The notes: generated by a model not told the origin, from the sequence alone. 64,000 bases of DNA from a bacterium (GCA_043800725.1 JAZDMR010000034.1:4374-68373); one strand, 5' to 3'. Positions 923 to 19,591 are shown, counted from the stretch's first letter. Numbers and translations are program-made.

Positions 923-925
923 GCT

Positions 926-2943: not shown

Positions 2944-2948
2944 GGGTG

Positions 2949-4046
2949 TTATACGATTTCTCTCATGGCCAGGCCGATGGCAACTGAAAACCTCGGGCCC
3001 AACTCATCTAAAACCGGCTTTAATTCAACCGGATAAATTACTCGTGACCAGGGATCGCCAATAAAGCTCTTAAGTTGCACGGTTTTTTCCAAATAATCTG
3101 ACAAGTTAGGTAAAAAAGCAGAGCCTCCGGATAATATGATTTTTTCAATGGGACGTTCTCCCTGGCTTTGGTAAAGCGATAGTATGTAGCGTATTTCATT
3201 TACTATGTTATTCATAACAAACTCAATTACTTTGGGTATCTGGCTGGTGCCGGCCTCGGTCAATACTCCGAAATCGCGCTTAATCTGCTCGGCTCTTTCC
3301 AAGTCGATATTCAGTCCATTGGCAATCGACTTCGTAATAGTGTCCCCTCCTACGTCAATGCTTCGATTAAGAAAAGGGAAACCATCCAAAATAACGCTGA
3401 TCTCGGTGGCGATTGCGCCGATATCAATAATCATAACAGCCGATTGGTCATTGCCTAATAAAGAACGCACTACGGCAAAAGATTCTGTCTCAAGGCTGAC
3501 AATTTCCAGCTCCGCCAGTTTGAATATATCAATATATCTTTTTACCAGATTCTTCGGAGCCGCCGTGATTAGAATCTTCAAGTTTTTCGGGCCTTGAATA
3601 TCACTTTCAATTTTGGGCTTTTTAAACTTTTTTTCTTTCTTTTCATTTTCAATTTCCGAGGGATCACGCAGAACTCGCCAATCCAAGACCATTTCATCAA
3701 TCGACATAGGGACGATTTTTTTTGCCTCCCAGCGGACCGCTGAATAAAGATCCTTTTTGGGCATGACCGGCAGGCTCAAAATCGAATTAAACACAGCAAA
3801 ACTAGGCAAAGCGGAAATGATTTTTTTGCTAGAAACCTTGGCTTTCTTCAGTACAGACTTGATATTCACTACCATCTGTTGAAGCGCCTCATCCGAATCA
3901 CTTTTTATTATCTCCGTCGGCTGTTCAATAAAACCGTAAGTTACTAATTTAGGCCGTCCGCCTTCATCAAACAACTCAACTGCCTTAATACTGGACGTGC
4001 CAATATCAATTCCCACATAACTCTGTTTTTTATTAAATAAAGGCAT
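2949..4046 (-). CDS. pilM: Type IV pilus assembly protein PilM (actin-like ATPase, 365 aa).
   Basis: N-terminus KQSYVGIDIGTSSIKAVEL (actin/FtsA-fold phosphate-1 motif), with further actin-fold motifs (MIIDIGAIATEISV, ILSGGSAFLPNLSDYL). It is the first gene of the pilMNO unit. Confidence 0.8.
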   Translation of the reverse strand: MPLFNKKQSYVGIDIGTSSIKAVELFDEGGRPKLVTYGFIEQPTEIIKSDSDEALQQMVVNIKSVLKKAKVSSKKIISALPSFAVFNSILSLPVMPKKDLYSAVRWEAKKIVPMSIDEMVLDWRVLRDPSEIENEKKEKKFKKPKIESDIQGPKNLKILITAAPKNLVKRYIDIFKLAELEIVSLETESFAVVRSLLGNDQSAVMIIDIGAIATEISVILDGFPFLNRSIDVGGDTITKSIANGLNIDLERAEQIKRDFGVLTEAGTSQIPKVIEFVMNNIVNEIRYILSLYQSQGERPIEKIILSGGSAFLPNLSDYLEKTVQLKSFIGDPWSRVIYPVELKPVLDELGPRFSVAIGLAMREIV

Positions 4047-4129: not shown

Positions 4130-4134
4130 ACATT

Positions 4135-7100
4135 TTAAAAGGGTATTTCCTCCCTTATCCTGGGCAGGACTTGGGCGAAATCGCTAAATCCGGGGGGCGG
4201 ATTGGCAATTACCCTTCCGTCATAGGTTATTTCTTCGGCGGGCAACGGATCAGTCAAGGTGCCTCGGAAAGTTCTGCCAAATTTATACGAAGGCGAAATC
4301 ATTAAGCCCTGAGCTTGAAATGCCTTTTCATCAAGCGAATTCTCAATTTCAATTCCGTTAGTTTTATTAGTATATCCCGGGTCGCCAAAGGCAATATATG
4401 AACCGACAATCGTGCGCACGTTGCCGGTTATTATAATCGACCCTTTGACAATTATTCCCAAAGAAGCCAGATCGCGGATTTTATCAAAATTTTCCGCTTG
4501 ATAGACAATATTAACGTCAATCGTTAAATCACCCTGGACCACGATTGTGCCTGCCCCGGAAACAGAATTAGGATTGGTAATATCGCGATTATTAATTTTC
4601 CATTCAGTAATATAGCCTTCTCCTGAATCACACCGGCCAATAGTAAAATCATTATTGATATTATAAACAGTATTATCCAAATTAACTCCTATCGCGCATA
4701 AACCCAGCTCTGTTAAATTTTTATCATCACTATTTACTATTTTATTGCCATACTTATTTTTTCCATCGCCGATATCAGTAATTGTCCCATTCAAATCAAT
4801 ACTGCCTAACACATTGGTATAATTGTTTGACTCACTTGGGAAATAGATTGATTCATAGCCTTGCTGGAAATAAGGGCGATCCATATAACCCGTTTCCACT
4901 TCACCAAAACCCTGTCCATAAAGAGTGCAATAATTAGAAATAGTGCCTGCCGCACTGATCACATAAGTAGCGTTGCACTTGTCAGACGGCGCTGAAGGCG
5001 TGTTGGCGCTGCCGATGTCTGCCCGTGCATAAATATCCCCAAACTTGGTCTGGAGCCAGGCCTGGCTGTAATAATTAGTCCTGGAAAAATCAACCCAGCC
5101 CAATTCGCCTTCTTGCTCAGCGCTGTTTCCGCTCCAGCCAAAGCCGGTTACTTTTCCGGTAGCATCATCAATTGACACTCCATAAGAATCGCATGACGCG
5201 CAAGTATCGCAGAATATTGTGCCAAGACAGACCCCGCCATAAGCACTACACGCCATATCACCGTCAGATGCGCACTCCACCGTATGGTTTCCCTTACATC
5301 GACGGGTACATGATCCGCCGTCAGTCGAACACATATTGCATGATATTTTTGTTTCATCCGCACTATCGTAAACATCAGCTGTTGTATTACAAATTTTACA
5401 AACCTCTACTGTGCATGTTCCAGCTTCCGCATCTTCACATTCATTGCCGGAACACTGGATTGAGGTGTCTCCAGAGCAAAATGTGGCGCAGTTTTTACAC
5501 TCTCCAAATGGTGCAATCACGGCTGGGTTCGCGGTTACGTCCTCACCTCTTAATTTGATCCAGCCGCCGTCGTTTGCGTCTTGTTTTAACGATAATAATC
5601 TGCCCCAGCCCACAACTTTTCCCGTACTCGGATCAAACTTTGCTATATAATTCTGATTACCGTCATTAAAGGGCTGAGCAGGCGGAACGCCGGATTCTTC
5701 CTCAAATAATCCAACTGGCGCATATTTGTTAAAAGACAACCAGCCGGTTGACTGGCAAATATTGATGTTTTCAGAGCAGCGGCAATCCGTATCCTCATCA
5801 CATTCTACTAAATCATTTGAATCACATACTCCTTCTTCTTCACCTGCGGGTATATTGCAATCATCTTTAATATAGGCGTTGGGATCAGCATCACCCAGCC
5901 ATATATATCCGGCGATCGCTCCCTGATTGGCGCCGCTTCTTCTAATATTAACGCCATAAGTAAAGCCGGCGCTTTCGCAGTAATCCTGGTTGGCGCAGCT
6001 GCCGCTGCCCCAGCCAATAGAATCCCTGCTGTTATTGTTCGTGCTAGCACCCAGCCAAAGCCAGCCGAAAATATTGCCGGGAGTGCTGGTAATAATATTG
6101 GATTTTTGGCCAACCGCCCGCACCTCGGTTAAACTGGCCGCTGACACGCCATTTAAGTGTTCTCCATCATTATTGGAGTCTTGGCGCTCCCAGATATGGC
6201 CATTGAATTGGAATATGGCGCCGTTTTGTGAATCATTATCAATATTCCCTACAGCATAGGCATTATATAAATCCAGCGCCGGGTTATAAAAAGCGCTAAC
6301 ATCATTTATTTGGATATTTGCCACGGTTGTATGCTGAAGTTCCCAGAAACCCCTATCACTATCATAATCGTAAATTTGCCCCTTTCCTCCTGGAGTATAT
6401 GCTGACGCCCAAGCAAGATAGCGCGTCTCGCTTACTTTTATCGCCTCAATTCCGGTGAAAGACACATTACCTATTTCATAATCCAAGATCCAGGTATTAC
6501 CATTAATATCGCTATTCCGATAGATTTTCCCCTGATCAGTCACGGCCCAGACATGAGTTGGGTCAACTGCTTCAATGCCAAATACTCCTCCTGTCACATT
6601 CGCAGATGAGGAAAACATTAACTTTTCGTTTATTCCGGACAGCTTTCCATGACGAATTTTGCCATCGTTTTCACCTACAAAAACAACAATTTCAGAAGCA
6701 TCGTCTACCGCAGCAACTGCGGTAAGGTTGGCTCCCATAAAAATATCTTTATCAGGACAAGGCGCGACTGGATCGCAAATAATGCTGCTATTGCGCCAGT
6801 ACCAAATTCTGCCATTATTGCCCACGGCCCAAACCAAATATTGTGCTCCTGATTCATAATAAATTGCATCGACATCATTTAATGTCTCAGGATTTGCGCT
6901 CAAGGCATCATCATCGAATACTTCCCAAAAAGACCCATTATAAAACATCACAGTATCTCGGACTGGCTCTTCTGGCCCCTTATATAGCTGATCACCCACT
7001 ATCCAGCCCAAATATTTCCCATCACTGGGATTCTGAACAAACTTTACCGCGTTAAAGTTTGTCTTAACATCCTGATAAATCTTGGGCGCCTTTTGAACCT

Positions 7101-7215
7101 CCCATTCCAGTCCGGCTTGGGACTGATGAGCCAATAATATGCCGAAACCAGCCAAAATCACGGCGCTTAGCCCGCTGATGAAAATTAGCCTTTTTCTTTT
7201 TAAAGCGTAGGACAT
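4135..7215 (-). CDS. Giant secreted protein (1026 aa): N-terminal signal peptide, beta-propeller-like repeats, and a very Cys-rich central region.
   Basis: Signal-peptide-like N-terminus (MSYALKRKRLIFISGLSAVILAGFGILLAHQSQAG). Blade-like repeats (GNNGRIWYW, GENDGKIRHGK, DQGKIYRNSD). A Cys-dense segment (CDSNDLVECDEDTDCRCSENINIC ... CKNCATFCSGDTSIQCSGNECEDAEAGTCTVEVCKICNTT...). It is separated by 2 nt from the upstream gene. Confidence 0.7.
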   Translation of the reverse strand: MSYALKRKRLIFISGLSAVILAGFGILLAHQSQAGLEWEVQKAPKIYQDVKTNFNAVKFVQNPSDGKYLGWIVGDQLYKGPEEPVRDTVMFYNGSFWEVFDDDALSANPETLNDVDAIYYESGAQYLVWAVGNNGRIWYWRNSSIICDPVAPCPDKDIFMGANLTAVAAVDDASEIVVFVGENDGKIRHGKLSGINEKLMFSSSANVTGGVFGIEAVDPTHVWAVTDQGKIYRNSDINGNTWILDYEIGNVSFTGIEAIKVSETRYLAWASAYTPGGKGQIYDYDSDRGFWELQHTTVANIQINDVSAFYNPALDLYNAYAVGNIDNDSQNGAIFQFNGHIWERQDSNNDGEHLNGVSAASLTEVRAVGQKSNIITSTPGNIFGWLWLGASTNNNSRDSIGWGSGSCANQDYCESAGFTYGVNIRRSGANQGAIAGYIWLGDADPNAYIKDDCNIPAGEEEGVCDSNDLVECDEDTDCRCSENINICQSTGWLSFNKYAPVGLFEEESGVPPAQPFNDGNQNYIAKFDPSTGKVVGWGRLLSLKQDANDGGWIKLRGEDVTANPAVIAPFGECKNCATFCSGDTSIQCSGNECEDAEAGTCTVEVCKICNTTADVYDSADETKISCNMCSTDGGSCTRRCKGNHTVECASDGDMACSAYGGVCLGTIFCDTCASCDSYGVSIDDATGKVTGFGWSGNSAEQEGELGWVDFSRTNYYSQAWLQTKFGDIYARADIGSANTPSAPSDKCNATYVISAAGTISNYCTLYGQGFGEVETGYMDRPYFQQGYESIYFPSESNNYTNVLGSIDLNGTITDIGDGKNKYGNKIVNSDDKNLTELGLCAIGVNLDNTVYNINNDFTIGRCDSGEGYITEWKINNRDITNPNSVSGAGTIVVQGDLTIDVNIVYQAENFDKIRDLASLGIIVKGSIIITGNVRTIVGSYIAFGDPGYTNKTNGIEIENSLDEKAFQAQGLMISPSYKFGRTFRGTLTDPLPAEEITYDGRVIANPPPGFSDFAQVLPRIREEIPF

Positions 7216-7217
7216 GG

Positions 7218-10200
7218 TTATAGTTTACAGCAACGGTAAAAAGTCGGGTGTCTGGTGCTTGAATTTCTTCGGAGGCCATTTAGGAATTGTCCGGCCGGAC
7301 AGACAGAACCATCCGCGACACTTACCCAATTGCATTGTTCAGTAACATTCTGATCAGCGATCACGTCTTCGGTAACCTGCACCTCACCGGTAAAGTCGGC
7401 AGATATTGCGTTGGTGGCAAAGCAGTACATTTCCGCGCCCACGGGCTGAGGCAAGCTTGAATCATAAAATGCCTGGTCAATACAGCTTAATCCTGAGTTA
7501 TCAATATGGTGACCGATTGACATTGCTTCTGATCGCGAATCCTGGATATCTGCTCCTCCCGCAGCTAATAGCAAATTGCCCTGTCCATCAATCGCCTGAA
7601 TCTTGCATTCGTCAACATTCGGACCGGTCTCAAAACAATAACTTGCGTAAACCACATCCCCTGCCCCTTTAAAAATCCGATAATCAATATTGCCCACATC
7701 ATCGGCGATTTCCAGATCGCTTGCCCATTTCTTGCTCCCATCTGCGGTATTTATCCTGTTCATAAGCAACCTACCGTCGCTTTCTCTGCGCCAAACAGCC
7801 GTCAGTTCACTATCATCGCTGACCAGCAACTGATGATTGATATCTGATGAATTAACGCTTTTACCAGGACCGAGATTAAGTCCGCCGGCCCAGGGCTGGG
7901 AGCCATCACTGACATTGAGCTTAAAAATCCATAGATCATTATTGGGGAATTGAGCTCTGGCATAGACCGCATTGTTATAATAAATCAAGCCTGCGCCGTT
8001 TAAAGTACTGCCGGTAACGTCCACGGTCCAATCTGCTGTTCCATTATTAAGAATATGGCGAGCTCTTAGGGTGCTGACTCCCGAGGTGTATATGATTACC
8101 AGCCCGCCCTGGCCATCTTCAGTCATGCCCTGTAAAACAGTGCCTGGTTCGGATGCCAGCTCCTTGGCGGTATTTGAACCGACAGTGCAACCTAAATCAG
8201 TGGACCACATCCGAGCGCCGTCGTCTTTATTTATTTTCATGCCGCAAATCTTGCCGCCATTATAAAAAGCAAATAATAAATTGTTAGCATTGGCAGATAG
8301 GCTCATATATTGGCCCGAATCAGCTTGGGATACGCCATAAGCGCTGTTTACGGCAGTATCCCAAATTGTGTTACCACTTGCGTCTACTCTGGCCATAAAA
8401 TGCTCGCGACCAATGCCCGGGCAATTGCTGGCCCAGCCCACATATGCCCCGTCGCCGCCATCCGAAATAAAACCAATATCATGGCCTGGCTGGCCGCAAC
8501 GATCCAGCGATGGGTCAAGAGCATTGCCCTCAGCCATGGTTCCGTCATCATCAACTGAAAACACTCTTGCCTGATTATCGGGATTAGTTCGTATGTAAGC
8601 GTACAGCCGGCTGGTTACAGTATTTTGAACCGGCCCTTGCCCGAACGGACCGGCAAAGACGCTGACTTCTGAAGTAAACGGCGAAGGCGACCACTCAGGA
8701 GTAAAATCATAATTTGAGGAATCCGTGTTTCTGGCAATCAAGGTAGGGTTGTCCGCAGAATTATTGACCGCCGTAACAGCCTGTCCGGCTATTGGATTGG
8801 TGAAATAGCCCGCGTAACAATTTTTTAACAAGCCGCAAGAAATCACCTCTCCGTAAATTCCGCTGCCGCCTGAATTAAAAGCCGCTCCGGCAAAACGACC
8901 GGCAATCCCCGCTCCAATCCAGGGTGAACCGTTTAAGCCCAGTCCGGTCGCTTCCAAGGTCGGCTTGCCGTCAATGCCTCCGGATAAATGCAGCCTTTGG
9001 CGATCAGTCGCTGCTATGCCCTGCAGGAATGAACCTGCTTCCGAAGTGTTTGGCCTAACATATATTGACCCTGAAGACAGCCAATCAATATTTATTTCGG
9101 TCTCAAAAGGATCATCAACTAATTTGCCAATTTCCAAAGAATCTGAATTTGTCACTCTGATGGTGCCATCGTAGATGGTTAATTTTTGCGGATCTGGGGA
9201 GCCAGTAGGATTAACCGTCCACTGGGCACCCGCGTTATTAGTCTGATTCAGCTCGTTAACGCAAGTAGCCGTCAGGGTCCATTGACCTTCTTTATCAATC
9301 ACTCCCGGATATTTCAAGCGAAAGGTTGAACCGGCCGAATTGGAAAAAGACACATTATTATAAATTACACTTGTTGGAGAGGCTAGGGTAAATCGCACAT
9401 CTTTTGTTGATACTGTGCCGGTATTGCAGGTGGTTTGAACGTGGGTAATCAAACCGCCGAATTGGGCATTTATACAGCTGCTGTAATTTAAACCTCCATC
9501 AATGCTGCAAGTCGGACTAGTAACAGTAATCGTCTCATCTGGGGGCAGGCCGGAGTTACCTGCTATCACCAAGACTTTTCCGGGATTTGCTACATCGATA
9601 TTCTGCATTTCCACATAAAGCAAACCATTATAAACCCCCAGCAGGCCTGATGCGTTTGCGGGCAGATCGCTGTTGAAAACCAGGCTGCCGTCTGTGGCGC
9701 TTAAAGCTTTTAATGACGTTCCGTTAATAAATAAATAAACAATTCCATTATCTGACACAATTAATTCAAGCCCTTTTTCAAGCGGGCCAAGGCTGCCGCT
9801 ATCCCAGGCTTCCGATCCATTATTGGCATTGAAAAAGATATATCTGGCCTGCCCGGCTGTTGATTCAAATGTATAGTACAATTTTCCATTCCAATAAGCG
9901 CCGTCCCATACTATTCCGTCATAATCTCCGGCTAATTCATGGTGCCAGTTTTTCACACCATTACTGGCATTATAAGAATTTATCCCGCAGACATTTCCAT
10001 AAACAGCGCCGCTATTATAAATTGGGCTATTATTATTGCTATCACCAGCTCCGCAATTTTCCTCAACAGTCCTCCAAATTAATAAGCCATTATCAGCCTC
10101 AAGAGCCACCATACCATGTACACCACCGTCATGATACTTTACAAATAATTTACTTTCACCGTACGCCGGGGTGGCGATTAACTGGGTATCATCACCTGCC

Positions 10201-10805
10201 GCGTCAAGAATTTCTGTCTGCCATAAAATGTCGCCATTGGCCTTATCAAGAGCATATACGCCTCCCGTAGCGCCCTCCTGCACTGAAATAAAAATTTTAT
10301 CTTCTGCCACCACTACGCCATGAGATACGGAATCAATTGACCAAACACTAAGATCTTTTTGCCATAACAATTTTTCAGTTTCAAGATTATACGCGTATAC
10401 AACAGAATGAGCGCCATCAACAGTAAAATAGCTAACGTCACCAGCTATGGCTGCATTGCTTCCATGACTGGTATCCGCAATTAGTTTTTGCTGCGGTACA
10501 TTGACCTCGTTATATTTATACAAACAGGTATTGCTGCCGTATTGGAAAATCGCCTGACCGCCTCTTATCCGAAAACCCTGGACGTCTTCTGAATCCCCCG
10601 CCACGCAGGGTCCGAGATATCCCGCTTCATTATATTCTGCCGGGCCGTAATCGTTTGAAGACCCTATATTGGCTTCATTTTTTTCTATTTGGTTCCAATT
10701 ATCATAAGCCTGTGTACTCGGAGCTATTAATAATCCAAATACTGCAATAAACAAGCTGATGAAAAATATTTTTTTGAGGTTTTTTATCGTCATAATTCGC
10801 AGCAA
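7218..10805 (-). CDS. Giant secreted protein (1195 aa) with PQQ-like beta-propeller repeats; a PilY1-like adhesin candidate. It contains the shared 'IGxxxDD...IYVRP...CYAGYF' module and ends ...FYRCCKL.
   Basis: Signal peptide (FFISLFIAVFGLLIAPSTQA). PQQ/BamB-like repeats (EKLLWQKDL, GDILWQTEIL, NGLLIWRTVE). The C-terminal half is homologous to the N-terminal half of ORF 13302..16826 (PVQNTVTSRLYAYIRTNPDNQARVFSVDDDGTMAEGNALD vs PLQNTPTSRLYLYEGS...VRVNDDGTSVEGNSFGLD). Confidence 0.7.
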   Translation of the reverse strand: MLRIMTIKNLKKIFFISLFIAVFGLLIAPSTQAYDNWNQIEKNEANIGSSNDYGPAEYNEAGYLGPCVAGDSEDVQGFRIRGGQAIFQYGSNTCLYKYNEVNVPQQKLIADTSHGSNAAIAGDVSYFTVDGAHSVVYAYNLETEKLLWQKDLSVWSIDSVSHGVVVAEDKIFISVQEGATGGVYALDKANGDILWQTEILDAAGDDTQLIATPAYGESKLFVKYHDGGVHGMVALEADNGLLIWRTVEENCGAGDSNNNSPIYNSGAVYGNVCGINSYNASNGVKNWHHELAGDYDGIVWDGAYWNGKLYYTFESTAGQARYIFFNANNGSEAWDSGSLGPLEKGLELIVSDNGIVYLFINGTSLKALSATDGSLVFNSDLPANASGLLGVYNGLLYVEMQNIDVANPGKVLVIAGNSGLPPDETITVTSPTCSIDGGLNYSSCINAQFGGLITHVQTTCNTGTVSTKDVRFTLASPTSVIYNNVSFSNSAGSTFRLKYPGVIDKEGQWTLTATCVNELNQTNNAGAQWTVNPTGSPDPQKLTIYDGTIRVTNSDSLEIGKLVDDPFETEINIDWLSSGSIYVRPNTSEAGSFLQGIAATDRQRLHLSGGIDGKPTLEATGLGLNGSPWIGAGIAGRFAGAAFNSGGSGIYGEVISCGLLKNCYAGYFTNPIAGQAVTAVNNSADNPTLIARNTDSSNYDFTPEWSPSPFTSEVSVFAGPFGQGPVQNTVTSRLYAYIRTNPDNQARVFSVDDDGTMAEGNALDPSLDRCGQPGHDIGFISDGGDGAYVGWASNCPGIGREHFMARVDASGNTIWDTAVNSAYGVSQADSGQYMSLSANANNLLFAFYNGGKICGMKINKDDGARMWSTDLGCTVGSNTAKELASEPGTVLQGMTEDGQGGLVIIYTSGVSTLRARHILNNGTADWTVDVTGSTLNGAGLIYYNNAVYARAQFPNNDLWIFKLNVSDGSQPWAGGLNLGPGKSVNSSDINHQLLVSDDSELTAVWRRESDGRLLMNRINTADGSKKWASDLEIADDVGNIDYRIFKGAGDVVYASYCFETGPNVDECKIQAIDGQGNLLLAAGGADIQDSRSEAMSIGHHIDNSGLSCIDQAFYDSSLPQPVGAEMYCFATNAISADFTGEVQVTEDVIADQNVTEQCNWVSVADGSVCPAGQFLNGLRRNSSTRHPTFYRCCKL

Positions 10806-11611
10806 TATAATTTGAATACCGAGGGGTCGGGTTCGGTATCACTGGCGATTCCGGCCAGCAATCGGTTATTAGAACAGATTAATTCGTCTTCTGCGTTGAA
10901 AAATTCCCATTCACAAGCGCCGCGAGTATTGCCTACGGCCCTGACAGTATCTGCAAGCACTTTACCCTCAAACGATCCGGCAATTCCGTTGGGATTATTA
11001 TTGGATGCTTTCAAGGCAGGCTCTAGAACATCAGAAGTATTGGAAATAGCCTGGACGCCGACATATTTATTGCCGCTGAAATAGCCTGCGTAACAAGTCA
11101 TCAGCGCGCCACAATCAGATACCTCGCCTTTAATCGCGCTGCCTACGGCATCTTCAATTCCTCCGTGAAAATATCCTGTTGAAGCGCCGAGTGTTGAATC
11201 AGTATCGGCAGTACCGGCCCAGGTAGCATCCAAAGTATGCTGGCCAGTGATTCCGCCGGTTAATTCCAAGCGCTGGCCAATCGAATCAGGTGATCCCTCA
11301 ATAAAAGATCCTCGAGAGCTGCCGTCTGGCCGAAGATATATTCTTCCGCCTGATTGGATATCGCGCCCAGCATTTCCCAGACGCAATTGAGCTGTGCTGT
11401 CTATCAACAAACTGCCATCGTAAATAGACAGCCGCTTAATAGGGGTAGATGGTCCGGCTGCTCGTGACAACTGAGACTGGTAGGAAATATTAAAGAAAAC
11501 AATTAAACCTAATCCGCCAATCAATCCAACGGATATTAAAATCCTGACCTGCTTGACAGTTAAAATCTGGAAATATTTGCCGAGTTTTTTCTTGTTTGAC
11601 TTATTAGGCAT
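10790..11611 (-). CDS. Membrane-anchored protein (273 aa) that consists essentially of the shared C-terminal module (LRLGNAGRDI...IYLRP...CYAGYF...KLYCCEL).
   Basis: N-terminal TM segment (ISVGLIGGLGLIVFFNI). The rest aligns with the C-terminal ~200 aa of ORF 13302..16826 and with the mid-region of ORF 7218..10805. It overlaps the upstream gene by 16 nt. Confidence 0.6.
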   Translation of the reverse strand: MPNKSNKKKLGKYFQILTVKQVRILISVGLIGGLGLIVFFNISYQSQLSRAAGPSTPIKRLSIYDGSLLIDSTAQLRLGNAGRDIQSGGRIYLRPDGSSRGSFIEGSPDSIGQRLELTGGITGQHTLDATWAGTADTDSTLGASTGYFHGGIEDAVGSAIKGEVSDCGALMTCYAGYFSGNKYVGVQAISNTSDVLEPALKASNNNPNGIAGSFEGKVLADTVRAVGNTRGACEWEFFNAEDELICSNNRLLAGIASDTEPDPSVFKLYCCEL

Positions 11612-11631
11612 GATAACTTTAATAATCTATC

Positions 11632-13320
11632 TTAGCGAAGACCTCCGGCATCCCCCTTGGCCATAATTGGAGAGCTGCCGCCGCATTCGGCATCTTCACA
11701 AACATTTACGCTTTCGCCACCATGATTTGAAAAAATACAACAGTAATCATATGGCGTATCATTGGCTACGCAAAATGGATCACTGGGACAAAGTAAGTTA
11801 ATGTGAAATCCTCTACTTCTCCACTCAGATTCGTTTCCATTATTATCCAGAGCGGAAATTGAGTAATAATAGTTTTCTCCCTGCGTAAGGGCCGGGTCAT
11901 CGTCTTTATAGCCGCCTATCAGAGATTCGCCAATTTTTACGCTATTGCGATAAATATTAAAATGGCTAAATCCGCTGTTTATACCTTCGGGCAAGTCGGT
12001 TTTCGGATGAGTCCAACCCAAGAGCGTATATTCTTCATCTCCTGGTATGGTGCCGTCGGGCAGATGAAGGTTGATACCAATTTGCGAGGTAATTGGAATA
12101 GGCGGAGTCTCATCAACAACCGACCCCGCTTCTAGGAAATTGTCGCCCGAAAACAGGAAAGTCCCGGATCCCTGGGTAGCGCCCCCGACACGATAGTGAT
12201 AATCTAGCGTTGAATCAATATTATCTACCAAAACCGAGTGGCTTATTCTATAAACTGGATCAGCAAGCTTACTGCCATAGTCCTCTGTCAGGCCATGCTC
12301 TACCACTGAGTACATAGGCCAATTCGAGGTCCAGGTAAATTCAGCACTGGTTGGGGTCTGCCATTCAGCAGTAATCTCGGATATTACCGGACAATCTGCT
12401 GGACAATCGATCGGATTCTCGGTACTTTCGGTACACACGCCATCACCGCAAGTAATTTCCGGAACGTGGCCATTAGGATCTCCTAGGACAGCGCTTAAAA
12501 AATGGCTGGAACCGTAAACAGCCGTGATGCCGGTTTGTAGGGTTGTGGGATATTCAGTCTGCAAAAACAAATAATCATTAACCCCTGAACCTTCGGGCCA
12601 GCTTGTACGGCAGTCACCGGGAGGATCTTCATCTTCCTCAAGCAAACACAGTTGAGACCCGGCAGTAATTTCAACGTTGCCGGTAAAATAGCCAGCATAG
12701 GCATTGGGATTGCCATTGTTGCCGCCAAAAATGCCATAGGCTAAAGCGTCTGATGATACTGACCCAGAATGAGCAGCCACACCCAAAACGCCGTAGCTCA
12801 ACCCCGGTAAGGCAACTACGGAACTAGACAGTCCGTAAAATCCATATGTATCTATAAGGGTTGGAGCGATGGCTCCAGAATGTAGGGCAAAGTTAGCATC
12901 ATCAGCCGCCTGGAAAGTGATTCCGCCTTGGATATGAATAAAATCAGAATCAGCACTAGTTGGAGATAAGTGAAGGATAGTGCCAATGGATCCGCCGGGC
13001 TCCCAGCCATTGATACAGGAATCGCCTAGGCAAAACTGCTCGTCTCCGTTTAACATTACGTTCAAGTTTCCTGAGGTAATAATTTCTCCAAGACTTGTCA
13101 AGCTTCCACTAGTATTCAGCTGACTGGATAATTTGAGAGGACCCCAACGCGTTTGGAGATCCGAGCCACCTGTAAGAATGGGCGCCTGGATATTGCCCTC
13201 CGGCGGATTTAATATTGGTTCATTAAAAGCCTGGGCAGTCCAAGCTAACACCAAGCCCGCTATAAAAAATAAACTGATACTGATGATACTTATGTTTCTA
13301 TTCATGGGTTTCCACAGCAA
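11632..13320 (-). CDS. Secreted protein (562 aa) with a Cys-bracketed N-terminal motif, an FN3 (PAP-N-like) domain and a CGDGxC...DC motif.
   Basis: Signal peptide (ISISLFFIAGLVLAWTAQA). Motifs FCLGDSCINGW and AYAGYFTGNVEITAGSQLCLLEEDEDPPGDCRTSWP. ITCGDGVCTESTENPIDCPADC. FN3-like region AEFTWTSNWPMYSVVEHGLTEDYG...DYHYRV. Confidence 0.65.
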   Translation of the reverse strand: MLWKPMNRNISIISISLFFIAGLVLAWTAQAFNEPILNPPEGNIQAPILTGGSDLQTRWGPLKLSSQLNTSGSLTSLGEIITSGNLNVMLNGDEQFCLGDSCINGWEPGGSIGTILHLSPTSADSDFIHIQGGITFQAADDANFALHSGAIAPTLIDTYGFYGLSSSVVALPGLSYGVLGVAAHSGSVSSDALAYGIFGGNNGNPNAYAGYFTGNVEITAGSQLCLLEEDEDPPGDCRTSWPEGSGVNDYLFLQTEYPTTLQTGITAVYGSSHFLSAVLGDPNGHVPEITCGDGVCTESTENPIDCPADCPVISEITAEWQTPTSAEFTWTSNWPMYSVVEHGLTEDYGSKLADPVYRISHSVLVDNIDSTLDYHYRVGGATQGSGTFLFSGDNFLEAGSVVDETPPIPITSQIGINLHLPDGTIPGDEEYTLLGWTHPKTDLPEGINSGFSHFNIYRNSVKIGESLIGGYKDDDPALTQGENYYYSISALDNNGNESEWRSRGFHINLLCPSDPFCVANDTPYDYCCIFSNHGGESVNVCEDAECGGSSPIMAKGDAGGLR

Positions 13321-16300
13321 TATATTCGATCATTTTCCCCGGGAGGGTTGTTTTCATAGCCGGAAATAAATCCATTATTAGGACAAACCAAATCCGCCCA
13401 AACCAGCGTTTCCCAATGGCACTCGGAAAAAAGCAGCTTTTCTGATTGGATATCCCCATCAGCCACGAAGTTGCCTTCAAATAATGCCGAAACATTATTC
13501 TCGGGACTGGCGCCGGCGCTGTTTTCAACTTTCAGGGCCGGGATGATCGAATCGCTTGATTCTGATAATAATCCTACTTCGTTGTTGCCTGCAAAATAAC
13601 CGGCGGCGCAGCCTCCTGCCGCGGCGCAGCTTACCACTTCGCCGTAAACAGCCGAGCCGCCCGCATTGTTATTGCTACCACTGAAGAAAGAAGCCACGGC
13701 ACTGGCGCCGTTACTGCTATTTTGGGTGCCGCTACCCTGGGCAAGGATTGTCGGCTGACCGGCAATACCGTAAGGAAAATGCAATCTCTGATCAGTCGTG
13801 CTGTCAGTCCCCTCCCAGAAGGCTCCCGCCAATGAATTATTTGGCCTAAGATAAATATTGCCCGTGGAGGCGATATCCCGCCCGGCATTCCCGATCTCCA
13901 GAGTATCACCGCTTGACTGGGCTATCTGAATAACGCCTTGATAGACTGACAGTTTTTGATTGGCAGAAAACGGCCAAGCACCAACGTCCCACTGCGCCTG
14001 ACTGGTGTCTTGCTGGCTGGCGGAATCCTTGCAAATTGCACTGATAGTCCATTGGCCTTCTTCATTTATCAATTTGGGATTATGCAGCGTGTAAGTATTA
14101 CCCACAACGTCACTGGCGATTAAATCTTCATATTTATAGCCAGAAGGAGCATTTAGGGTAAATTGTACCTGGGCAATATCGGCCGCCGCAGCTCCCACCG
14201 GGGAAATATAAACGTCAGTATTGATTCCGTCTTCCTCTTGTCTTTCCCAGACAATATTATTCCCGTTGATATGGGGAGCCGAATCAAAGCGAGGATGATC
14301 AGTTATTTGAATATCTCCGCTGTCATCCGCCGTGCCGAATAAACCGTCCGGCCCCAGGTCATAAACCATGACTTCAAAAAAATCAAAATCAACATCATCA
14401 TATCGCGAAAAAACAATCTTGGTCCCTGACATGCTTGGCAAATAATCAGTCAGTCCGGAAGTTGTCAGGCGGACCGTTCCAATATCATCCGTCGTATCCG
14501 GTGAACCGTCCGGCCCCAGGTCATACATATAGATATCAAAATTACACGTATCACATTCCCGAGCGGTCCACAGTACATATCGGGAATAAATTACCGGCCG
14601 CATCCCGGTAAGCGAATTTCCTTGAGGAAAATCAGATATTTCAAATGCTTCAGCATTGGTTAGATCCACCACAAATATTGAATCGTCTTCCGGGCCGCCT
14701 CCTTGGACACGGACTACGCCGTATCTGCCTCCCAGCTCCCCAGCATCCGCGTCAGTATGGCCAATCGTGTCAAAATCCGTTACTTCCGTGTCTCCCAGAT
14801 CATCACCAGTGCCCAATCTGCCATCAGGGCCCACATCATAAATGAACATATGGCCGTCGGGATTATTTAAAAATCGCTCATACAAAATATATCTGCCGTT
14901 AAAGCCAGCGTCATCAAGCTGATCTACCCGGAGACTGCCCGGATCAGTTTCTCCGGCTGCCCAGTTATACACCCAAATATAATCTTCCGCCCCAACATTC
15001 CCCGCAAAAAAAACATGGTCATCAGTAACATCCTCAACTAGGGCTGAACCTTGAGCGATTATTTCTGCTTCAGTGCCATCGTCCGGGGTGCCGAATAATT
15101 TATCTGCACCTAAATCATAACGGCTAATATAGCCGCTCGCTTCATAAATAACGTACTGATTGGTTAAATAGGGAAATCTCCAAGTCGTATCAGCCACATC
15201 ATTTAGCGCGCCTTCAGAAAATGGCTGGGCAGCGCCCGGGTCACAGCTAACTCGGACATGGCTTAATACGTTGCCATACTGCGCTTCGCTGCATAAGCCG
15301 AAGTCCGCCCCGCCATTGATGCTACAGATGGGATCGGTCACTGTGGGCAAGCTCCCAAGACAGTACTCTTGCACAGCCACTCTTATACCGCCGGGCTCGC
15401 CATAACCATGGCCAATGCACGATAGGCTATCATTTCCAACAATTTTATTATGTATGCCAAATTGCGGTTGTTGGTTATACGCTTCACTGCTTGGATCCAC
15501 AGTAATTCCATTACCGGGGAATATCTTTTGCCCTGCTCCGTCAAATCCTTGTATGGAACAGTCCCACTCATTGCCAATATCTTCACAAATTGCAAAATAT
15601 GAAACGCTCTGGGGTCCGGTAAAGTGATTAACAATACCTTGAAAGGGGGTTCTAACATAAATTAGCTTATCACTGGGCCAGACTTTTGTTCCATCCTCCA
15701 TATTGATTCTGTTGGTATAATTACTGCTATCCGCACTCAGCTCCCATTGTAAAGAAATCGCAGTATTATCAACCTGGACAATACGCGGATTATGAAAAAC
15801 ATTAGATACGTTATACGGTTCAGCCCAAGGCTGAGACCCATCAGCCACCTTTACGCGATCAATAAATAATTCTTTATTTGGCACTATGTCCTCGGTCCAG
15901 ATCATATAAACCGAACCATCGTAATAAAATGCACTGGTAACGCTTACATCAGGATCAGCTGTGAAGTCAACGCTCCATGCTAAATCACCGGCCGAATCAA
16001 TTCTATGCGCGCGCCCGGAACCAGACAGTATAATAATCCCGCCCTGTCCATCAGAAACCACTGTATGGACATACTCTCCCGTGAGTAGCCTACGGCCATC
16101 TTGCCCACCACATACTTGACTAGTCCACATACTTGCACTTGTCGTGCGATTTATTTTTACGCCACAGACATAATTTCCGTCTCTAAAGGTCATTATGGCA
16201 TGGCCATCACTTGCTAAAACTACATGGTTCCAGGCAGGAGATGTGTCTGTACCAAGCTGACCAGGACCTATCTCCCAAATTATGCCTCCATTTCCATTAA

Positions 16301-16826
16301 GCCGGGCAAGATATATATTATCTCCGTCAAATATAATACTCTTAGAAGAGGCGACATAAGCGCCATCTAAACCATCTGATATCATCCCCTTTTTGCGCTC
16401 ACCACCAACGGAAAATAGCTCTCGGTCCAAACCAAACGAATTGCCTTCAACTGAGGTGCCATCATCATTTACTCGCACCGGATGAAAATGATCATCAGGT
16501 CCTGGCTCGGAAACTGAGCCTTCATATAGATATAATCGACTGGTAGGGGTGTTTTGCAGTGGTCCGCTTAACATTCTATCTTGGTCATCGGCAATAGAGG
16601 AAAAATAAAGCGGCGGATCCCACTGCGGCACCAAAGAAAAGTCGGCTCGGGCCACCTCTGTTTTATTAATCACATAAACAACCAGTAACACACTGGCCAT
16701 CATCAAGCTAATGCTAATAATCACGGCCAACCGGATTTTTTTCATTATTGGATTTTTTGCGTAATTATCTGGCATAGGAATAAAATTACCAGCCCCCGCC
16801 GCCTTCCCAGCCGCCGGGATCTTCAT
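13302..16826 (-). CDS. Giant secreted protein (1174 aa) with a beta-propeller-rich N-half and the shared C-terminal module; ends ...DRIYCCGNP.
   Basis: TM/signal segment (LAVIISISLMMASVLLVVYVI). Repeated DGxxDDxGxxxxTD-like segments. C-terminus LEIGNAGRDIASTGNIYLRPNNSLAGAFWEG...VYGEVVSCAAAGGCAAGYFAGN.... The N-half is homologous to the C-half of ORF 7218..10805. Confidence 0.7.
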   Translation of the reverse strand: MKIPAAGKAAGAGNFIPMPDNYAKNPIMKKIRLAVIISISLMMASVLLVVYVINKTEVARADFSLVPQWDPPLYFSSIADDQDRMLSGPLQNTPTSRLYLYEGSVSEPGPDDHFHPVRVNDDGTSVEGNSFGLDRELFSVGGERKKGMISDGLDGAYVASSKSIIFDGDNIYLARLNGNGGIIWEIGPGQLGTDTSPAWNHVVLASDGHAIMTFRDGNYVCGVKINRTTSASMWTSQVCGGQDGRRLLTGEYVHTVVSDGQGGIIILSGSGRAHRIDSAGDLAWSVDFTADPDVSVTSAFYYDGSVYMIWTEDIVPNKELFIDRVKVADGSQPWAEPYNVSNVFHNPRIVQVDNTAISLQWELSADSSNYTNRINMEDGTKVWPSDKLIYVRTPFQGIVNHFTGPQSVSYFAICEDIGNEWDCSIQGFDGAGQKIFPGNGITVDPSSEAYNQQPQFGIHNKIVGNDSLSCIGHGYGEPGGIRVAVQEYCLGSLPTVTDPICSINGGADFGLCSEAQYGNVLSHVRVSCDPGAAQPFSEGALNDVADTTWRFPYLTNQYVIYEASGYISRYDLGADKLFGTPDDGTEAEIIAQGSALVEDVTDDHVFFAGNVGAEDYIWVYNWAAGETDPGSLRVDQLDDAGFNGRYILYERFLNNPDGHMFIYDVGPDGRLGTGDDLGDTEVTDFDTIGHTDADAGELGGRYGVVRVQGGGPEDDSIFVVDLTNAEAFEISDFPQGNSLTGMRPVIYSRYVLWTARECDTCNFDIYMYDLGPDGSPDTTDDIGTVRLTTSGLTDYLPSMSGTKIVFSRYDDVDFDFFEVMVYDLGPDGLFGTADDSGDIQITDHPRFDSAPHINGNNIVWERQEEDGINTDVYISPVGAAAADIAQVQFTLNAPSGYKYEDLIASDVVGNTYTLHNPKLINEEGQWTISAICKDSASQQDTSQAQWDVGAWPFSANQKLSVYQGVIQIAQSSGDTLEIGNAGRDIASTGNIYLRPNNSLAGAFWEGTDSTTDQRLHFPYGIAGQPTILAQGSGTQNSSNGASAVASFFSGSNNNAGGSAVYGEVVSCAAAGGCAAGYFAGNNEVGLLSESSDSIIPALKVENSAGASPENNVSALFEGNFVADGDIQSEKLLFSECHWETLVWADLVCPNNGFISGYENNPPGENDRIYCCGNP

Positions 16827-18468
16827 ATTGTAGATAACTTTCAGGAATTTCTTTTAACACAACAGGTGAACCGCCCGGCAGGGGTTCCCCACAGCCCAGC
16901 TCCCCATAGCACACGGGGTACAAAGGATTGGTGCAGTTTGAATTGCTGACGCAAGCGGTCGGCACATGGATTATTTCTGCATTAGATGGCTCTGACTCAT
17001 TGCCCAGCATATCAACCGCAGTAATCTCATATGAATAGTAGGCATCCTGGTCAACAAAATAATCAATATACCAAGCACTGGTCGTAGTATCGAAGGGAAT
17101 GCCCTCACGGTAAATAACAAAATGCGAAAAACCAGAACCCCCCGGATTATCCTGCAAAGTCTGGTACCAAGCGAGAGGTATCTGATCGGGCTTCGGCGTA
17201 GTGTTATGTAAATTGGCCGGCGGGAAAGGAGGGGTCGTGTCAATTAAAGAAGTAAAATTTAAAACACTTGATGCTCTGTAAGCGCCCGAATCAGCGATTG
17301 ATTGAACCTGATAATAATAAGCGGTCGAATAATTCAGGCTGGACAATAATACCGCGTGATCATAGGCCAGGGTCTCATCAACAATTTCGCTACCCAGGTC
17401 CGGGGTAGTGCCATAATTAACAACCGTAGAAGCAGGCGCGCTGGTTTGCCAGGTGATTACCGCCGTTCCATCCGTAATATTGGTAGGTGATACCTTATAA
17501 ACTGTAAAACAATCAACTTCGCAAGTAAAAATGGTTTCGCCGTTATTGCAGCTGCCGTCTCCGCAGGTAATTCCTATGCCTAAACCGGACGGATCGCCGC
17601 CCAGAATAAGGCTGGTAAAGACTGAGGTCGAGCCAGGACTCAAATCAACATTGCCCTGCTGGTTGGTTTCAGGGTCAAGCTTCACAAAATCGCCCTCCAT
17701 TTCTCCTGTGGGCCATTCATACTTACAATCTCCGGCAAAATCCAGGCAACCGTCAATTTCTACCTTACCCTTGAAATAAGCTGCGTAGGCCGGACCGACT
17801 AATGACGGGGCAGTTCCCCCAACACCTATTGAGAAGGGACTATTTGAACCAGCAACTCCATAAACGCCAGCTGACAAGTGGGCGGGCAGAGTGTCTCCGC
17901 TGCCCGCATACCCCATAATTGCGTGAGAAAGATTGGAACTCGAACGTCCGGCTTTGGCATACAAAGCTATCGGGCTCCCACTTTCATTTATATCGCCTTC
18001 GATAATCATATAACCCTCTTTCTCTTTCGTTGGATCAGGATCGCCCAATCTGATAAAGCCCAAGTCCGGATCAACCGGATTAATATGAACAAAATTACCT
18101 TCTTCAAAATCAAAATTGTTCTTACAAAGTGCTCCATCTCCGGTGTCGTTGATGCAAATTTCCCCGTCGTCATCTGGCAGGTCGGGAGATACTCGAAAAT
18201 TTTCATCTACTGATAACAGATTATTTGTTTGAATGCCCTGATCCAGAACTTCCAAGGTATTTTTAATAGTCAAATCTCCCTGAACGGTTTGAGGTGTTAC
18301 TGAAGTATTCAGAGGCGCTTCAGTGGTCCCCCCCCAAGGAGCCGCGCCAGCCCCGTCATTCCAGACAGGATCAACCCAGGCAGCTCTGACATATGAAATG
18401 CCAATAAATAAACTGACTAAAACAAGACCGGTAATCACAGAGTATTTTATTTTATGCTGAATAGTCAC
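16786..18468 (-). CDS. Secreted protein (560 aa), paralog of 11632..13320 and 18491..19591, with an FN3 (PAP-N-like) domain.
   Basis: Signal peptide (VITGLVLVSLFIGISYVRA). Motifs ICINDTGDGALCKNNF and AYAAYFKGKVEIDGCLDFAGDCKYEWP. ITCGDGSCNNGETIFTCEVDC. FN3-like region TAVITWQTSAPASTVVNYGTTPDLG...YYYQV. Confidence 0.65.
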   Translation of the reverse strand: MTIQHKIKYSVITGLVLVSLFIGISYVRAAWVDPVWNDGAGAAPWGGTTEAPLNTSVTPQTVQGDLTIKNTLEVLDQGIQTNNLLSVDENFRVSPDLPDDDGEICINDTGDGALCKNNFDFEEGNFVHINPVDPDLGFIRLGDPDPTKEKEGYMIIEGDINESGSPIALYAKAGRSSSNLSHAIMGYAGSGDTLPAHLSAGVYGVAGSNSPFSIGVGGTAPSLVGPAYAAYFKGKVEIDGCLDFAGDCKYEWPTGEMEGDFVKLDPETNQQGNVDLSPGSTSVFTSLILGGDPSGLGIGITCGDGSCNNGETIFTCEVDCFTVYKVSPTNITDGTAVITWQTSAPASTVVNYGTTPDLGSEIVDETLAYDHAVLLSSLNYSTAYYYQVQSIADSGAYRASSVLNFTSLIDTTPPFPPANLHNTTPKPDQIPLAWYQTLQDNPGGSGFSHFVIYREGIPFDTTTSAWYIDYFVDQDAYYSYEITAVDMLGNESEPSNAEIIHVPTACVSNSNCTNPLYPVCYGELGCGEPLPGGSPVVLKEIPESYLQYEDPGGWEGGGGW

Positions 18469-18490
18469 AAATTCTTTTTATTAAAAAAAT

Positions 18491-19591
18491 CTAGCGGCAA
18501 TCGACCGGACAAGTGCTATGGCTCTCGCCATTTCCCCCATAATTACATAGTCCGTCGCCGCAGGTTATTGATACTGGAGTAGACGGTAACGGCTCGCCAA
18601 GTACAAATTGCCCGGTTTTGGCCGAGCCTTCCACTTTTACTTCACCGGTTTGAAATACCGGCGTGGGCGAATCTTGGACCTTGACCAAAGAATCATCTGC
18701 TATCGGCCCCCAGTTGCTCGCGTTGCGGCAGTCGCCGTTTAAACAAAGATCTCCTTCAACTCCAACCCGTCCGTCAAATCGTCCTGCCCAAGACACAGGA
18801 TCTTCATTAAACCCACCGTCTGAGCCCCAAACGCCCCGAGTTATATTATTCGGCGTACAAACACCAGGCAGACAAGGGTCAGGATCATCCTCTACCAAAC
18901 AAGAGACATTAGGAGTTGACCCGCCTTGGCAATAAGCCGCATTAGTTGCCAGTCCAGCAATGCCATAGGTAGCAAGGTTGTTATTAGCACATATACCATC
19001 ATTGCAGTCTGAATCTTCATCACAAGGATTGCCATCACTCTCTCCACCAGAACAAAAAAGGCTAGCACTTTCCCCAACAATAGCCGCGGTACGATCTCCG
19101 GTGGGCTGATCAGCAGTGGCTTGTATGCCAAACTGATTGGCTAAAGGAATTATTTTTGAATTACTTTCAGGTCCAGCTGCCAGACTGGTTAAGCTGGGGG
19201 TACCTAAATCAGCCGTACCTGGATTTAAATGCACATAATTACCTGTTAAAGATCCCCAGCTTGAGATACACGCGTCATTTAAGCACAATTGCTTTCCATC
19301 AGCTATTTGTATATCGCTGTTGGTGTTTAATGTTGTTGTGTTTATGGTGTTTTGAATTTCCAGATTCCCCTGGACAATTAATCCGCCTTGTTTGGTTTGA
19401 GCTACATGGGTAGATGCTAAATTCTCATCACCAGCAATGATTGGCTGAGCCGTGGTCGAGTTCGGGGCGGTTTGGTCCGGTTCTGACCAAAAAGCCAAAC
19501 CCTGGCCAATTCCAAAAACCAGAGCTAATAGTAATATAGCGGTTATTAGGCCATATCGCTGGCTTTTAAGATTGAACCGGCGATTAAGCAT
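18491..19591 (-). CDS. Secreted protein (366 aa), smallest member of the paralog family; ends with ITCGDGLCNYGGNGESHSTCPVDCR.
   Basis: Signal peptide (LITAILLLALVFGIGQGLA). Motifs QLCLNDACISSW and WAGRFDGRVGVEGDLCLNGDCRNASNW. It is the first gene after the divergent promoter region. Confidence 0.6.
   Translation of the reverse strand: MLNRRFNLKSQRYGLITAILLLALVFGIGQGLAFWSEPDQTAPNSTTAQPIIAGDENLASTHVAQTKQGGLIVQGNLEIQNTINTTTLNTNSDIQIADGKQLCLNDACISSWGSLTGNYVHLNPGTADLGTPSLTSLAAGPESNSKIIPLANQFGIQATADQPTGDRTAAIVGESASLFCSGGESDGNPCDEDSDCNDGICANNNLATYGIAGLATNAAYCQGGSTPNVSCLVEDDPDPCLPGVCTPNNITRGVWGSDGGFNEDPVSWAGRFDGRVGVEGDLCLNGDCRNASNWGPIADDSLVKVQDSPTPVFQTGEVKVEGSAKTGQFVLGEPLPSTPVSITCGDGLCNYGGNGESHSTCPVDCR

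Follow-up and report, generated by a model that had tools for sequence, protein, structure and literature searches.

Probable old accretion and nesting of beta-propellers on a constant Cys-rich module in three paralogs encoded beside type IV pilus genes of a Patescibacterium

Three genes on the minus strand of a bacterial contig, here called B, C and E, encode proteins that share a small Cys-rich module and differ in the beta-propellers attached to it. The genes lie between positions 7,218 and 16,826 of a 64,000-nucleotide stretch (GCA_043800725.1 JAZDMR010000034.1:4374-68373), called the window, whose source organism is an ultra-small Patescibacterium. Their mosaic structure is very likely the product of old accretion and nesting of propellers on the constant module (M+Ct), and not of programmed switching among the genes; a function linked to the pilus is suggested by the neighbouring genes. 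The three proteins would be old paralogs, secreted or membrane-anchored at the cell surface and defined by a C-terminal M+Ct module of about 230 amino acids (aa) with six conserved Cys, on which autonomous beta-propellers would have been repeatedly added, replaced and nested. In B, a copy of an eight-bladed propeller (P2) would have been inserted into a variable loop of M+Ct, producing the apparent identity of the C-terminal half of B with the N-terminal half of E that an earlier, sequence-only reading of this DNA had described. A different propeller would be nested in the small XY domain of E, and a Kelch-like propeller in the Ct segment of a relative of C.

The modules were defined as P2, a propeller of about 440 aa; XY, a Cys-containing domain of about 105 aa; Ma and Mb, the IGNAGRD and CYAGYF parts of M; and Ct, with the pattern CxW...CP.G...YCC-x-L. 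Braces enclose a nested domain, and INS is the nested segment of E. The three genes and their domains, all on the minus strand, are:

7218..10805, minus strand: B, 1195 aa (1191 aa in the NCBI call); signal, PQQ-like propeller, XY, M{P2 propeller}Ct
10790..11611, minus strand: C, 273 aa; N-terminal transmembrane (TM) helix and the M+Ct module alone
13302..16826, minus strand: E, 1174 aa; signal/TM, P2 propeller, X{INS propeller}Y, M, Ct
9546..10688, minus strand: B residues 40-420, PQQ-like (BamB-type) beta-propeller; Pfam PF13360 PQQ_2, E=8e-26, 91.5 bits against a gathering cut-off of 27.6
9201..9545, minus strand: B residues 421-535, contiguous XY domain; B 427-463 matches E 495-531, and B 470-523 matches the Y segment of E
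8727..9200, minus strand: B residues 536-693, Ma+Mb with CYAGYF, from module alignments
7404..8726, minus strand: B residues 694-1134 (441 aa), P2 propeller nested in a probable loop of M+Ct; clean break relative to homologues, AlphaFold2 (AF2) model and Foldseek
7221..7403, minus strand: B residues 1135-1195, Ct (CNW...CPAG...YRCCKL); similar to E 1110-1171, 47% identical to residues 199-259 of the related protein P0010
15351..16667, minus strand: E residues 54-492, P2 propeller directly after the signal peptide; 30% identical to B 686-1131, eight-sequence alignment A5
14178..15242, minus strand: E residues 529-883, INS, 355 aa nested in XY; absent from the orthologue P0003 of locus L004
13305..14006, minus strand: E residues 941-1174, M+Ct (EIGNAGRDI ... 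CAAGYF ... CHW ... YCCGNP); alignments A1 and A2, six conserved Cys

All-against-all BLASTP of the translated open reading frames (ORFs) gives similarity among B, C and E that is far above chance and is not of low complexity. The mosaic domain shuffling proposed from the sequence alone is thus real and statistically solid, and the similarity between the C-terminal part of B and the N-terminal part of E stands: B 686-1131 aligns with E 54-492 at 30.3% identity in a single collinear high-scoring segment pair of 468 columns (E=2e-46), where short, low-complexity matches without such a block would have spoken against the proposal. Other parts of the two proteins match in a different order. B 427-463 corresponds to E 495-531 (46%, E=7e-8), B 470-657 to E 887-1067 (40%, E=5e-35) and B 1132-1193 to E 1110-1171 (27%, E=0.002), while C 45-271 corresponds to E 943-1171 (38%, E=3e-33) and C 59-206 to B 540-695 (38%, E=7e-22). 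All the strings quoted in the sequence-only reading are present, and C is, as stated there, a TM helix with the module alone. The CSIDGG/CSINGG pair, offered there as an example, lies outside the block of about 450 aa and belongs to the separate small XY domain.

The order of modules is TM-Ma-Mb-Ct in C, signal-P2-X-(355 aa)-Y-Ma-Mb-Ct in E and signal-PQQ propeller-XY-Ma-Mb-(P2)-Ct in B. The module was correctly placed at the C-terminus of E, but in B it is not simply mid-protein; it is split, with its last 61 residues (Ct, 1135-1195) following P2. CYAGYF occurs in B as described, while the literal IGNAGRD does not, the corresponding segment reading EIGKLVDD...INIDW. The module of B is interrupted and not relocated: '...NPTLIARNTDSSNYD' is followed by the whole of P2 and then by 'ISADFTGEVQV...CNW...CCKL', in register with C and E. 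The arrangement is therefore better described as a nested domain insertion, P2 within a probable loop of M+Ct, than as one half of a protein equalling the other half of its paralog.

The insertion in B is delimited by comparison with its relatives. The closest complete relative found is CP060223.1 (locus L002), whose proteins are labelled Candidatus Nomurabacteria bacterium. Its B protein (B', P0012, 751 aa) aligns over residues 1-688 with B 5-693 and over residues 694-751 with B 1135-1195, leaving five residues between the two blocks, and the difference in length (1195-751 = 444 aa) roughly equals P2. The break at 693|1135 in B corresponds to 688|694 in P0012, 194|199 in P0010, 733|738 in P0011 and 641|646 in P0014, so that four B-clade relatives are contiguous at the insertion point, with break points within 5 residues. 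All 12 of 12 M+Ct rows in alignment A4 are gapped across the insert. In a single MAFFT alignment over B 421-1195, fragments of P2 are misplaced. The inserted P2 begins at the residue where mature E begins ('DFTPEW' as against 'ADFSLVPQW') and ends at the same 'YC' motif, P2 being the mature N-terminus in all E-type proteins. The parent domain, contiguous in the homologues, has a single break in B, and the insert is an autonomous unit that also occurs free-standing. The insertion site falls in the part of alignment A2 richest in indels; the model of the parent is unreliable.

Two further insertions have been found in the family. E 31-528 aligns with P0003 18-499 and E 884-1172 with P0003 505-796, so that the junction 528|884 in E corresponds to 499|505 in P0003 and E 529-883 interrupts XY as an insertion. 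In B and in the E-type proteins of L004 and L005, XY is unbroken. The insert, INS, is rich in repeats with YDLGPDG..GT.DD motifs and is presumably another propeller. A 64-nt direct repeat of 73% identity (14316-14379 and 14478-14541) lies within it, in adjacent blade-like units carrying the YDLGPDG..GT.DD motif. In P0008, the protein at the C position of L005, a Kelch/DUF5122-like propeller of 340 aa lies between the first and second Cys of Ct and is an insertion relative to C.

Beta-propellers are classic insertable domains, since their N- and C-termini meet in one blade. The AF2 model of the B P2 domain, made from the eight-sequence alignment, has a predicted local distance difference test score (pLDDT) of 81.3 and a predicted template modelling score of 0.83, and is all-beta with 32 strands. 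These strands would form eight four-stranded blades, the last closed by the N-terminal strand 8-10 together with strands 403-436 (Velcro closure); the grouping follows the strand pattern. A Foldseek search of the PDB with this model returned only beta-propellers (E about 1e-9 to 1e-7, template modelling score about 0.5), including prolyl-oligopeptidase propellers, tetrathionate hydrolase, Photorhabdus PHL/PLL lectins and a YVTN S-layer propeller. P2 itself falls below the PF13360 threshold, and its hidden Markov model matches the PQQ region of B with an i-E of only 0.04.

The constant module has no such structural relatives. AF2 predicted M+Ct with a mean pLDDT of 49.6, only Ct reaching about 80, and Foldseek gave no match for this model (best E=2.3). 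M has no match in Pfam or PHROG, and profile searches with M+Ct found no relative in the PDB. One PDB profile match, to a triple-cerebellin (C1q) fusion at E=0.002, was rejected as chance; its score sums a 5-bit match that occurs three times, at i-E=110 each. The six invariant or near-invariant Cys suggest three extracellular disulfides. An exhaustive HMMER search with the M+Ct profile of 1.84 billion cluster representatives gave 75 proteins at E<1e-3, of which 16 reach E<1e-30. The strong matches contain the complete module, while the weaker ones have Ma alone, usually after an N-terminal TM helix and followed by diverse G/A-rich or Cys-rich regions. A word-index protein search, too insensitive an index for this family, returned only B itself with full-length B and five proteins with a 16-sequence module alignment. 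The M+Ct module, and the seven-gene, pilus-adjacent unit to which B, C and E belong, appear to be undescribed, although the principles involved are known.

Strong module matches were placed in loci by exact-sequence look-up, and their architectures were determined by local BLAST and hidden Markov models. A question mark denotes a gene off the recovered contig.

Window: E, P2-X{INS}Y-M-Ct; C, TM-M-Ct; B, PQQ-XY-M{P2}Ct (1195 aa)
L002: E, P2-X{INS}Y-M-Ct; C, TM-M-Ct; B, PQQ-XY-M-Ct (751 aa)
L006: E, P2-X{INS}Y-M-Ct; C, TM-M-Ct; B, TM-M-Ct only (259 aa)
L008: E, P2-X{INS}Y-M-Ct; C, ?; B, ?
L004: E, P2-XY-M-Ct; C, TM-M-Ct; B, P2-XY-M-Ct (797 aa)
L005: E, P2-PQQ-XY-M-Ct; C, TM-M-Ct{Kelch-like}; B, FG-GAP-XY-... 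(cut)
L009: E, ?; C, ...{Kelch-like} (fragment); B, FG-GAP-XY-M-Ct (705 aa)

Comparison of relatives for rearrangement, as the sequence-only reading had advised, thus shows propeller sets at E, C and B that differ by locus, while gene order is constant. The order G-F-E-D-C-B-A is kept wherever the contig is long enough (L002, L004, L005, L006, L008 and L009), and each complete locus has exactly three M+Ct genes, three D/F/G genes and A. C orthologues of 255-270 aa are present in L002, L004 and L006. In L004, P2 is found in B at a different place, the N-terminus, which indicates a separate acquisition. Between the window and L002, identity is 76% for PilM, 80% for LemA, 51% for A, 54% for C, 46% for D, 47% for F, 45% for G and 37% for both E and B; within E and B, the stalk (Ma) is 54-66% identical and the propellers are 27-35% identical. 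A diversifying surface or adhesin family, as proposed earlier, remains a reasonable reading, with propellers only 21-35% identical between genomes whose PilM proteins are 76% identical; recombination or cassette switching as an ongoing mechanism is not supported.

The shuffling appears to be old. Word-7 blastn and a repeat finder over 4000-19700, together with self-blastn of the whole window, found no DNA match between any two of B, C and E better than 67 nt at 72%. As a positive control, the same window yielded a tract of 141 nt at 93% (34802-34942 and 37955-38095), its only strong DNA repeat. The short direct repeats that might have been expected at domain boundaries are absent; the junction DNA of the B insert has neither direct repeats nor microhomology, and the GC and third-position GC contents of the insert are unremarkable. 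In a neighbour-joining tree of M+Ct modules with the inserts spliced out, clades form by gene position (bootstrap 82.5 for E, 58.5 for C and 61 for B) and not by genome, which implies that the triplication predates these genomes and that there has been no concerted evolution. P2 domains are mutually 17-35% identical; the B copy resembles the P2 of the L002 E protein (34.5%, 256 bits) more closely than that of the adjacent E (30%, 169 bits). Each of the three genes is a complete ORF with an N-terminal signal or TM segment, and there are no silent, promoter-less or truncated donor cassettes. Among the 34 window ORFs scanned with Pfam, none matched a recombinase or reverse transcriptase; the scan did not include 39210-39803, 41805-42503, 42493-42999 and ORFs below the length cut-offs. 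There is likewise no sign of a diversity-generating retroelement: the 34 ORFs have no reverse transcriptase domain, and B, C and E and their surroundings contain no near-identical pair of repeats. Since DNA similarity is lacking, the modules cluster by position and no recombinase or reverse transcriptase was found, the data support old domain accretion and not cassette switching. The propellers would have arrived by duplication and illegitimate recombination, in old and rare events followed by fast divergence.

B, C and E belong to a closely spaced string of minus-strand genes in the order G-F-E-D-C-B-A, followed by pilM, a pilN-like gene and pilO. Type IV pilus genes occupy 3..4046 (minus strand) directly downstream of A, as identified by tblastn with L002 proteins and by Pfam. 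The remaining genes of the string and the pilus genes are:

18491..19591, minus strand: G, 366-aa secreted protein, the shortest of the D/F/G family, with its N-terminal domain of about 310 aa only
16786..18468, minus strand: F, 560 aa, D/F/G family; FN3-like domains and a Cys-rich C-terminus (Pfam Pur_ac_phosph_N/fn3)
11632..13320, minus strand: D, 562 aa as the longest ORF, D/F/G family
4135..7215, minus strand: A, 1026-aa secreted Cys-rich protein, unrelated to the other six
2949-4046, minus strand: pilM (Pfam PilM_2, E=4e-45)
1603-2943, minus strand: pilN-like gene
926-1606, minus strand: pilO (Pfam PilO)
632-922, minus strand: 97-aa ORF between pilO and the start of pilB
3-605, minus strand: start of pilB (tblastn with L002 proteins)

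The called gene pairs C/B and E/D overlap by 4 nt each in the public assemblies and in the Logan locus; a 4-nt gene overlap is the usual sign of translational coupling. The TTG starts of the longest ORFs of B (10790-10805) and D (13302-13320) are probably not true starts, the public calls being 1191 aa for B and 557 aa for D. All seven proteins begin with a Sec-type signal or a single TM helix, as read directly from their N-termini.

The seven genes do not encode seven paralogs, as had been thought, but two families and a singleton: B/C/E, D/F/G and A, which matches none of the others. F and D are 29% identical over 543 columns (E=5e-39), and G is 25.6% identical to D (E=1e-15) and 23.5% to F (E=2e-10) by BLASTP. 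The three share an N-terminal domain of about 310 aa without a Pfam family, with the motifs W-x-E-P..PP.G...P, Q-x-K/R-x-G-x-L, LCLNG..CI..W, AYAGYF.GRV.I and TCGDG.CN..E...CP.DC, and a profile from their alignment (A6) matches FN3 proteins in the PDB. G orthologues are present in L002, L004 and L006. The central 'YAGYF' segment of D/F/G also matches many Ma-containing proteins. Homology between M+Ct and D/F/G was not demonstrable, hhalign giving only a 21-column motif match with a probability of 12%. In P0040, P0058 and P0031, a D/F/G-type N-terminal region and an Ma-type module are fused in single proteins, which supports a functional link between the two sets of paralogs. The giant ORFs at 46-64 kb have only FN3-like segments in common with D and F.

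A is the best conserved of the seven proteins, with 51% identity to its L002 counterpart A' and 46% to A of L006 (46-54% overall). It has a very Cys-rich centre and a conserved C-terminus, '...PPPGF.DF..VLP.IRE.IPF'. Its sole Pfam match above a curated cut-off is a single Hyd_WA propeller repeat (residues 128-139, 23.4 bits against a cut-off of 21), and a PDB profile search with A gave no match. Locus searches of genome and metagenome collections yielded no locus with the module alignments, and a search with A as the query added two short contigs only. In one of the related loci, L011, from a distant Patescibacteria single-cell genome whose A is 38% identical, the gene upstream of A (75-1724) encodes a 549-aa protein that is not of the B type and that has, by eye, Gly-rich repeats like those of tail fibres or YadA-type heads. 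The position beside A seems open to adhesin-like genes of different kinds. Two of the operon contigs, L010 (CAZWTD010000028.1) and L008 (CAZWTD010000023.1), are in an assembly titled 'uncultured Gammaproteobacteria bacterium'; the title probably stems from an error of binning or labelling, though an epibiont co-binned with its host may also account for it.

A pilus-linked role in adhesion or host recognition would fit the placement of the genes beside pilMNO-pilB, the extracellular features of the proteins and the fast evolution of the propellers. The seven genes might instead form an autonomous surface fibre or an S-layer-associated adhesin set that lies beside the pilus genes without a functional tie, a possibility judged the less probable one. 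Sec-type leaders in place of prepilin leaders, the different fibre-like protein upstream of A in L011, and the presence of Ma-type modules in many proteins of unknown context would all agree with such a set. So would a near-consensus sigma-70-like promoter at 4101-4129 (minus strand), in the 88-nt gap between A and pilM, with TTGCCA and TATAAT 17 nt apart, an upstream TG and 11/12 matches. However, a sequence scan found no terminator-like site in this gap, and adjacency and orientation to pilMNO are kept in the window, L002 and L006 despite protein divergence of 37-54%; L002 and L006 continue into pilMNO-pilB, which with the window makes three genomes with pilus adjacency. Overall, the promoter and terminator scans performed no better than on shuffled sequences.

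With regard to the history of B, M{P2}Ct could be the ancestral state at the B position, P2 having been precisely deleted in the other lineages. That P2 domains are roughly equidistant, the B P2 being the best match of several E-type P2 domains, fits an old origin. Such a history is improbable, because the other B-clade modules (L002, L004, L006, L009, P0013 and the outlier P0016), like all C- and E-clade modules, are contiguous at the site, and several independent deletions, each precise to the residue, would be needed. The N-terminal P2 in B of L004 also points to independent acquisitions.

That B, C and E actively switch cassettes or undergo gene conversion, giving antigenic or phase variation as in pilE/pilS, vlsE and MgPa, is very improbable and already largely refuted. 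Although the genes are tandem paralogs with common modules and very divergent variable parts, and a surface localisation is plausible, their DNA lacks the identity needed for homologous recombination, whereas the 141-nt control tract was detected by the same method, and their common blocks are only 30-40% identical even as protein. The grouping of modules by position, the completeness of all copies, with signal peptides and close spacing or 4-nt overlaps, the identity of the B and E sequences in two assemblies and the lack of a recombinase in the ORFs scanned also stand against it. That B is a chimera of mis-joined reads from E-like genes of co-occurring strains is hardly credible, for although the source is metagenome-assembled and the title of the L010 assembly shows that such errors exist in this kind of data, an identical 1191-aa B and 1174-aa E occur both in a Logan assembly and, separately, on an NCBI contig of 131 kb, the reading frame is intact over both junctions, the insert has exactly the limits of P2 with Ct resuming in register, and the P2 of B, only 30% identical to that of E, offers no repeat to mislead an assembler.

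Several points weigh against old nesting on M+Ct and its tie to the pilus. No prepilin motif (PilD; G/FTLIE-type) is present in the N-termini of the seven proteins, and none of the seven matches a Pfam PilY1/PilC or pilin family, PilX2 itself not having been compared. The promoter-like site means that pilMNO may have their own promoter and be transcribed separately. The fold of M and the loop character of the insertion site would follow from alignment gaps alone, given the low pLDDT of the M model, and the nested architecture of B is pieced together from alignments, P2 having been modelled by itself. A gain of P2 in the B lineage of the window is the direction that parsimony favours, over about six B-clade sequences. 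Finally, the two assemblies that carry B may come from the same sample.

Old accretion and nesting on M+Ct can be compared with several known systems. As in nested domains generally, a complete autonomous domain, found free-standing in a paralog, breaks into a parent that homologues have in one piece; the difference is that here three independent nestings, of three different propellers in three apparent loops (M/Ct, XY and Ct), occur in one small family and one conserved operon. PilX2 of Nanosynbacter lyticus TM7x is a propeller-bearing, PLL-lectin-like protein that lacks a PilD signal and on which efficient binding to the host depends; the PilY1 proteins of Pseudomonas and Myxococcus also bear propellers and are linked to type IV pili (PMC11623550). 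The present proteins resemble them in having propeller domains encoded in a type IV pilus cluster of a Patescibacterium, no PilD-type signal, structural matches of the Photorhabdus PLL/PHL type and a proposed role in host binding. They differ in that no pilin-like lollipop domain is recognised, Pfam PilY1 is absent, and the module to which the propellers are attached, or in which they are nested, is Cys-rich and unrelated; the PilX2 propeller is seven-bladed with RCC1 repeats, while P2 is modelled with eight blades.

Gene-conversion cassette systems for surface variation include Neisseria pilE/pilS, Borrelia vlsE and Mycoplasma MgPa. In these, as here, clustered paralogs encode variable surface segments, but silent cassettes, common DNA tracts and concerted evolution are lacking in the present locus. 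Receptor-binding fibres that are mosaics with swappable tip domains are known from phage tails and from Bdellovibrio (MAT fibres). Like them, the present proteins combine a conserved shaft or anchor with binding domains that evolve fast and can be exchanged, and the wider Ma family has the G/A-rich pattern 'AxYAEQ..GYAGYFxGxVxI'. However, the M module has no PHROG or Pfam tail-fibre match, and the variable propellers are N-terminal or nested and are not C-terminal tips.

Elsewhere in the window, 32658-63924 (minus strand) holds a patescibacterial type IV secretion-like cluster (compare PMC12102498), with these members:

34096-35292, minus strand: T4SS_pilin-domain protein, also with an SLT domain
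35289-35927, minus strand: DsbA-like thioredoxin
37234-38367, minus strand: T4SS_pilin-domain protein
39824-41836, minus strand: TraG/VirB4-like ATPase
46260-49457, minus strand: 1065-aa protein, TrbL/VirB6-like match below threshold (18.2 bits, cut-off 25.9)

The 1065-aa protein is followed by three giant proteins (1548, 1524 and 1629 aa) with Big_7, FN3 and CBM_4_9 domains. The 141-nt tract used as the control belongs to the T4SS_pilin domains of two paralogs whose protein identity is otherwise 54%; its mismatches are not A-biased and not like those of a diversity-generating retroelement, and it looks like a recent gene conversion.

The conserved modules of B, C and E would probably build or dock a surface structure, on which the fast-evolving propellers would probably serve as interchangeable ligand- or host-binding heads, by analogy with the proposal for Saccharibacteria PilX2. 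The constant number of genes, exactly three M+Ct, three D/F/G and one A in each complete locus, prompts a more specific but doubtful idea, a '3+3+1' surface machine of fixed stoichiometry tied to the type IV pilus, in which E, C and B might hetero-oligomerise via the Cys-rich module, C being the membrane base, E and B carrying the propeller heads and D/F/G forming a second set. The failure to predict M+Ct as a monomer is compatible with a hetero-oligomer, and equally with a shallow alignment.

A signal of permuted paralogs can reflect old evolution of architecture and not switching. With three propellers in three loops of one family, the locus is a compact natural case of repeated nested insertion, useful for protein evolution and engineering. 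Patescibacteria are mostly uncultured, and knowledge of how they find and hold their hosts is essentially limited to Saccharibacteria. The locus provides a conserved, pilus-adjacent set of genes whose constant parts are an unannotated module and whose variable propellers fit the pattern expected of specificity determinants. If the '3+3+1' idea were true, the set would be an undescribed host-attachment organelle of Parcubacteria-type Patescibacteria, with a propeller repertoire that would determine host range and could be read as such.

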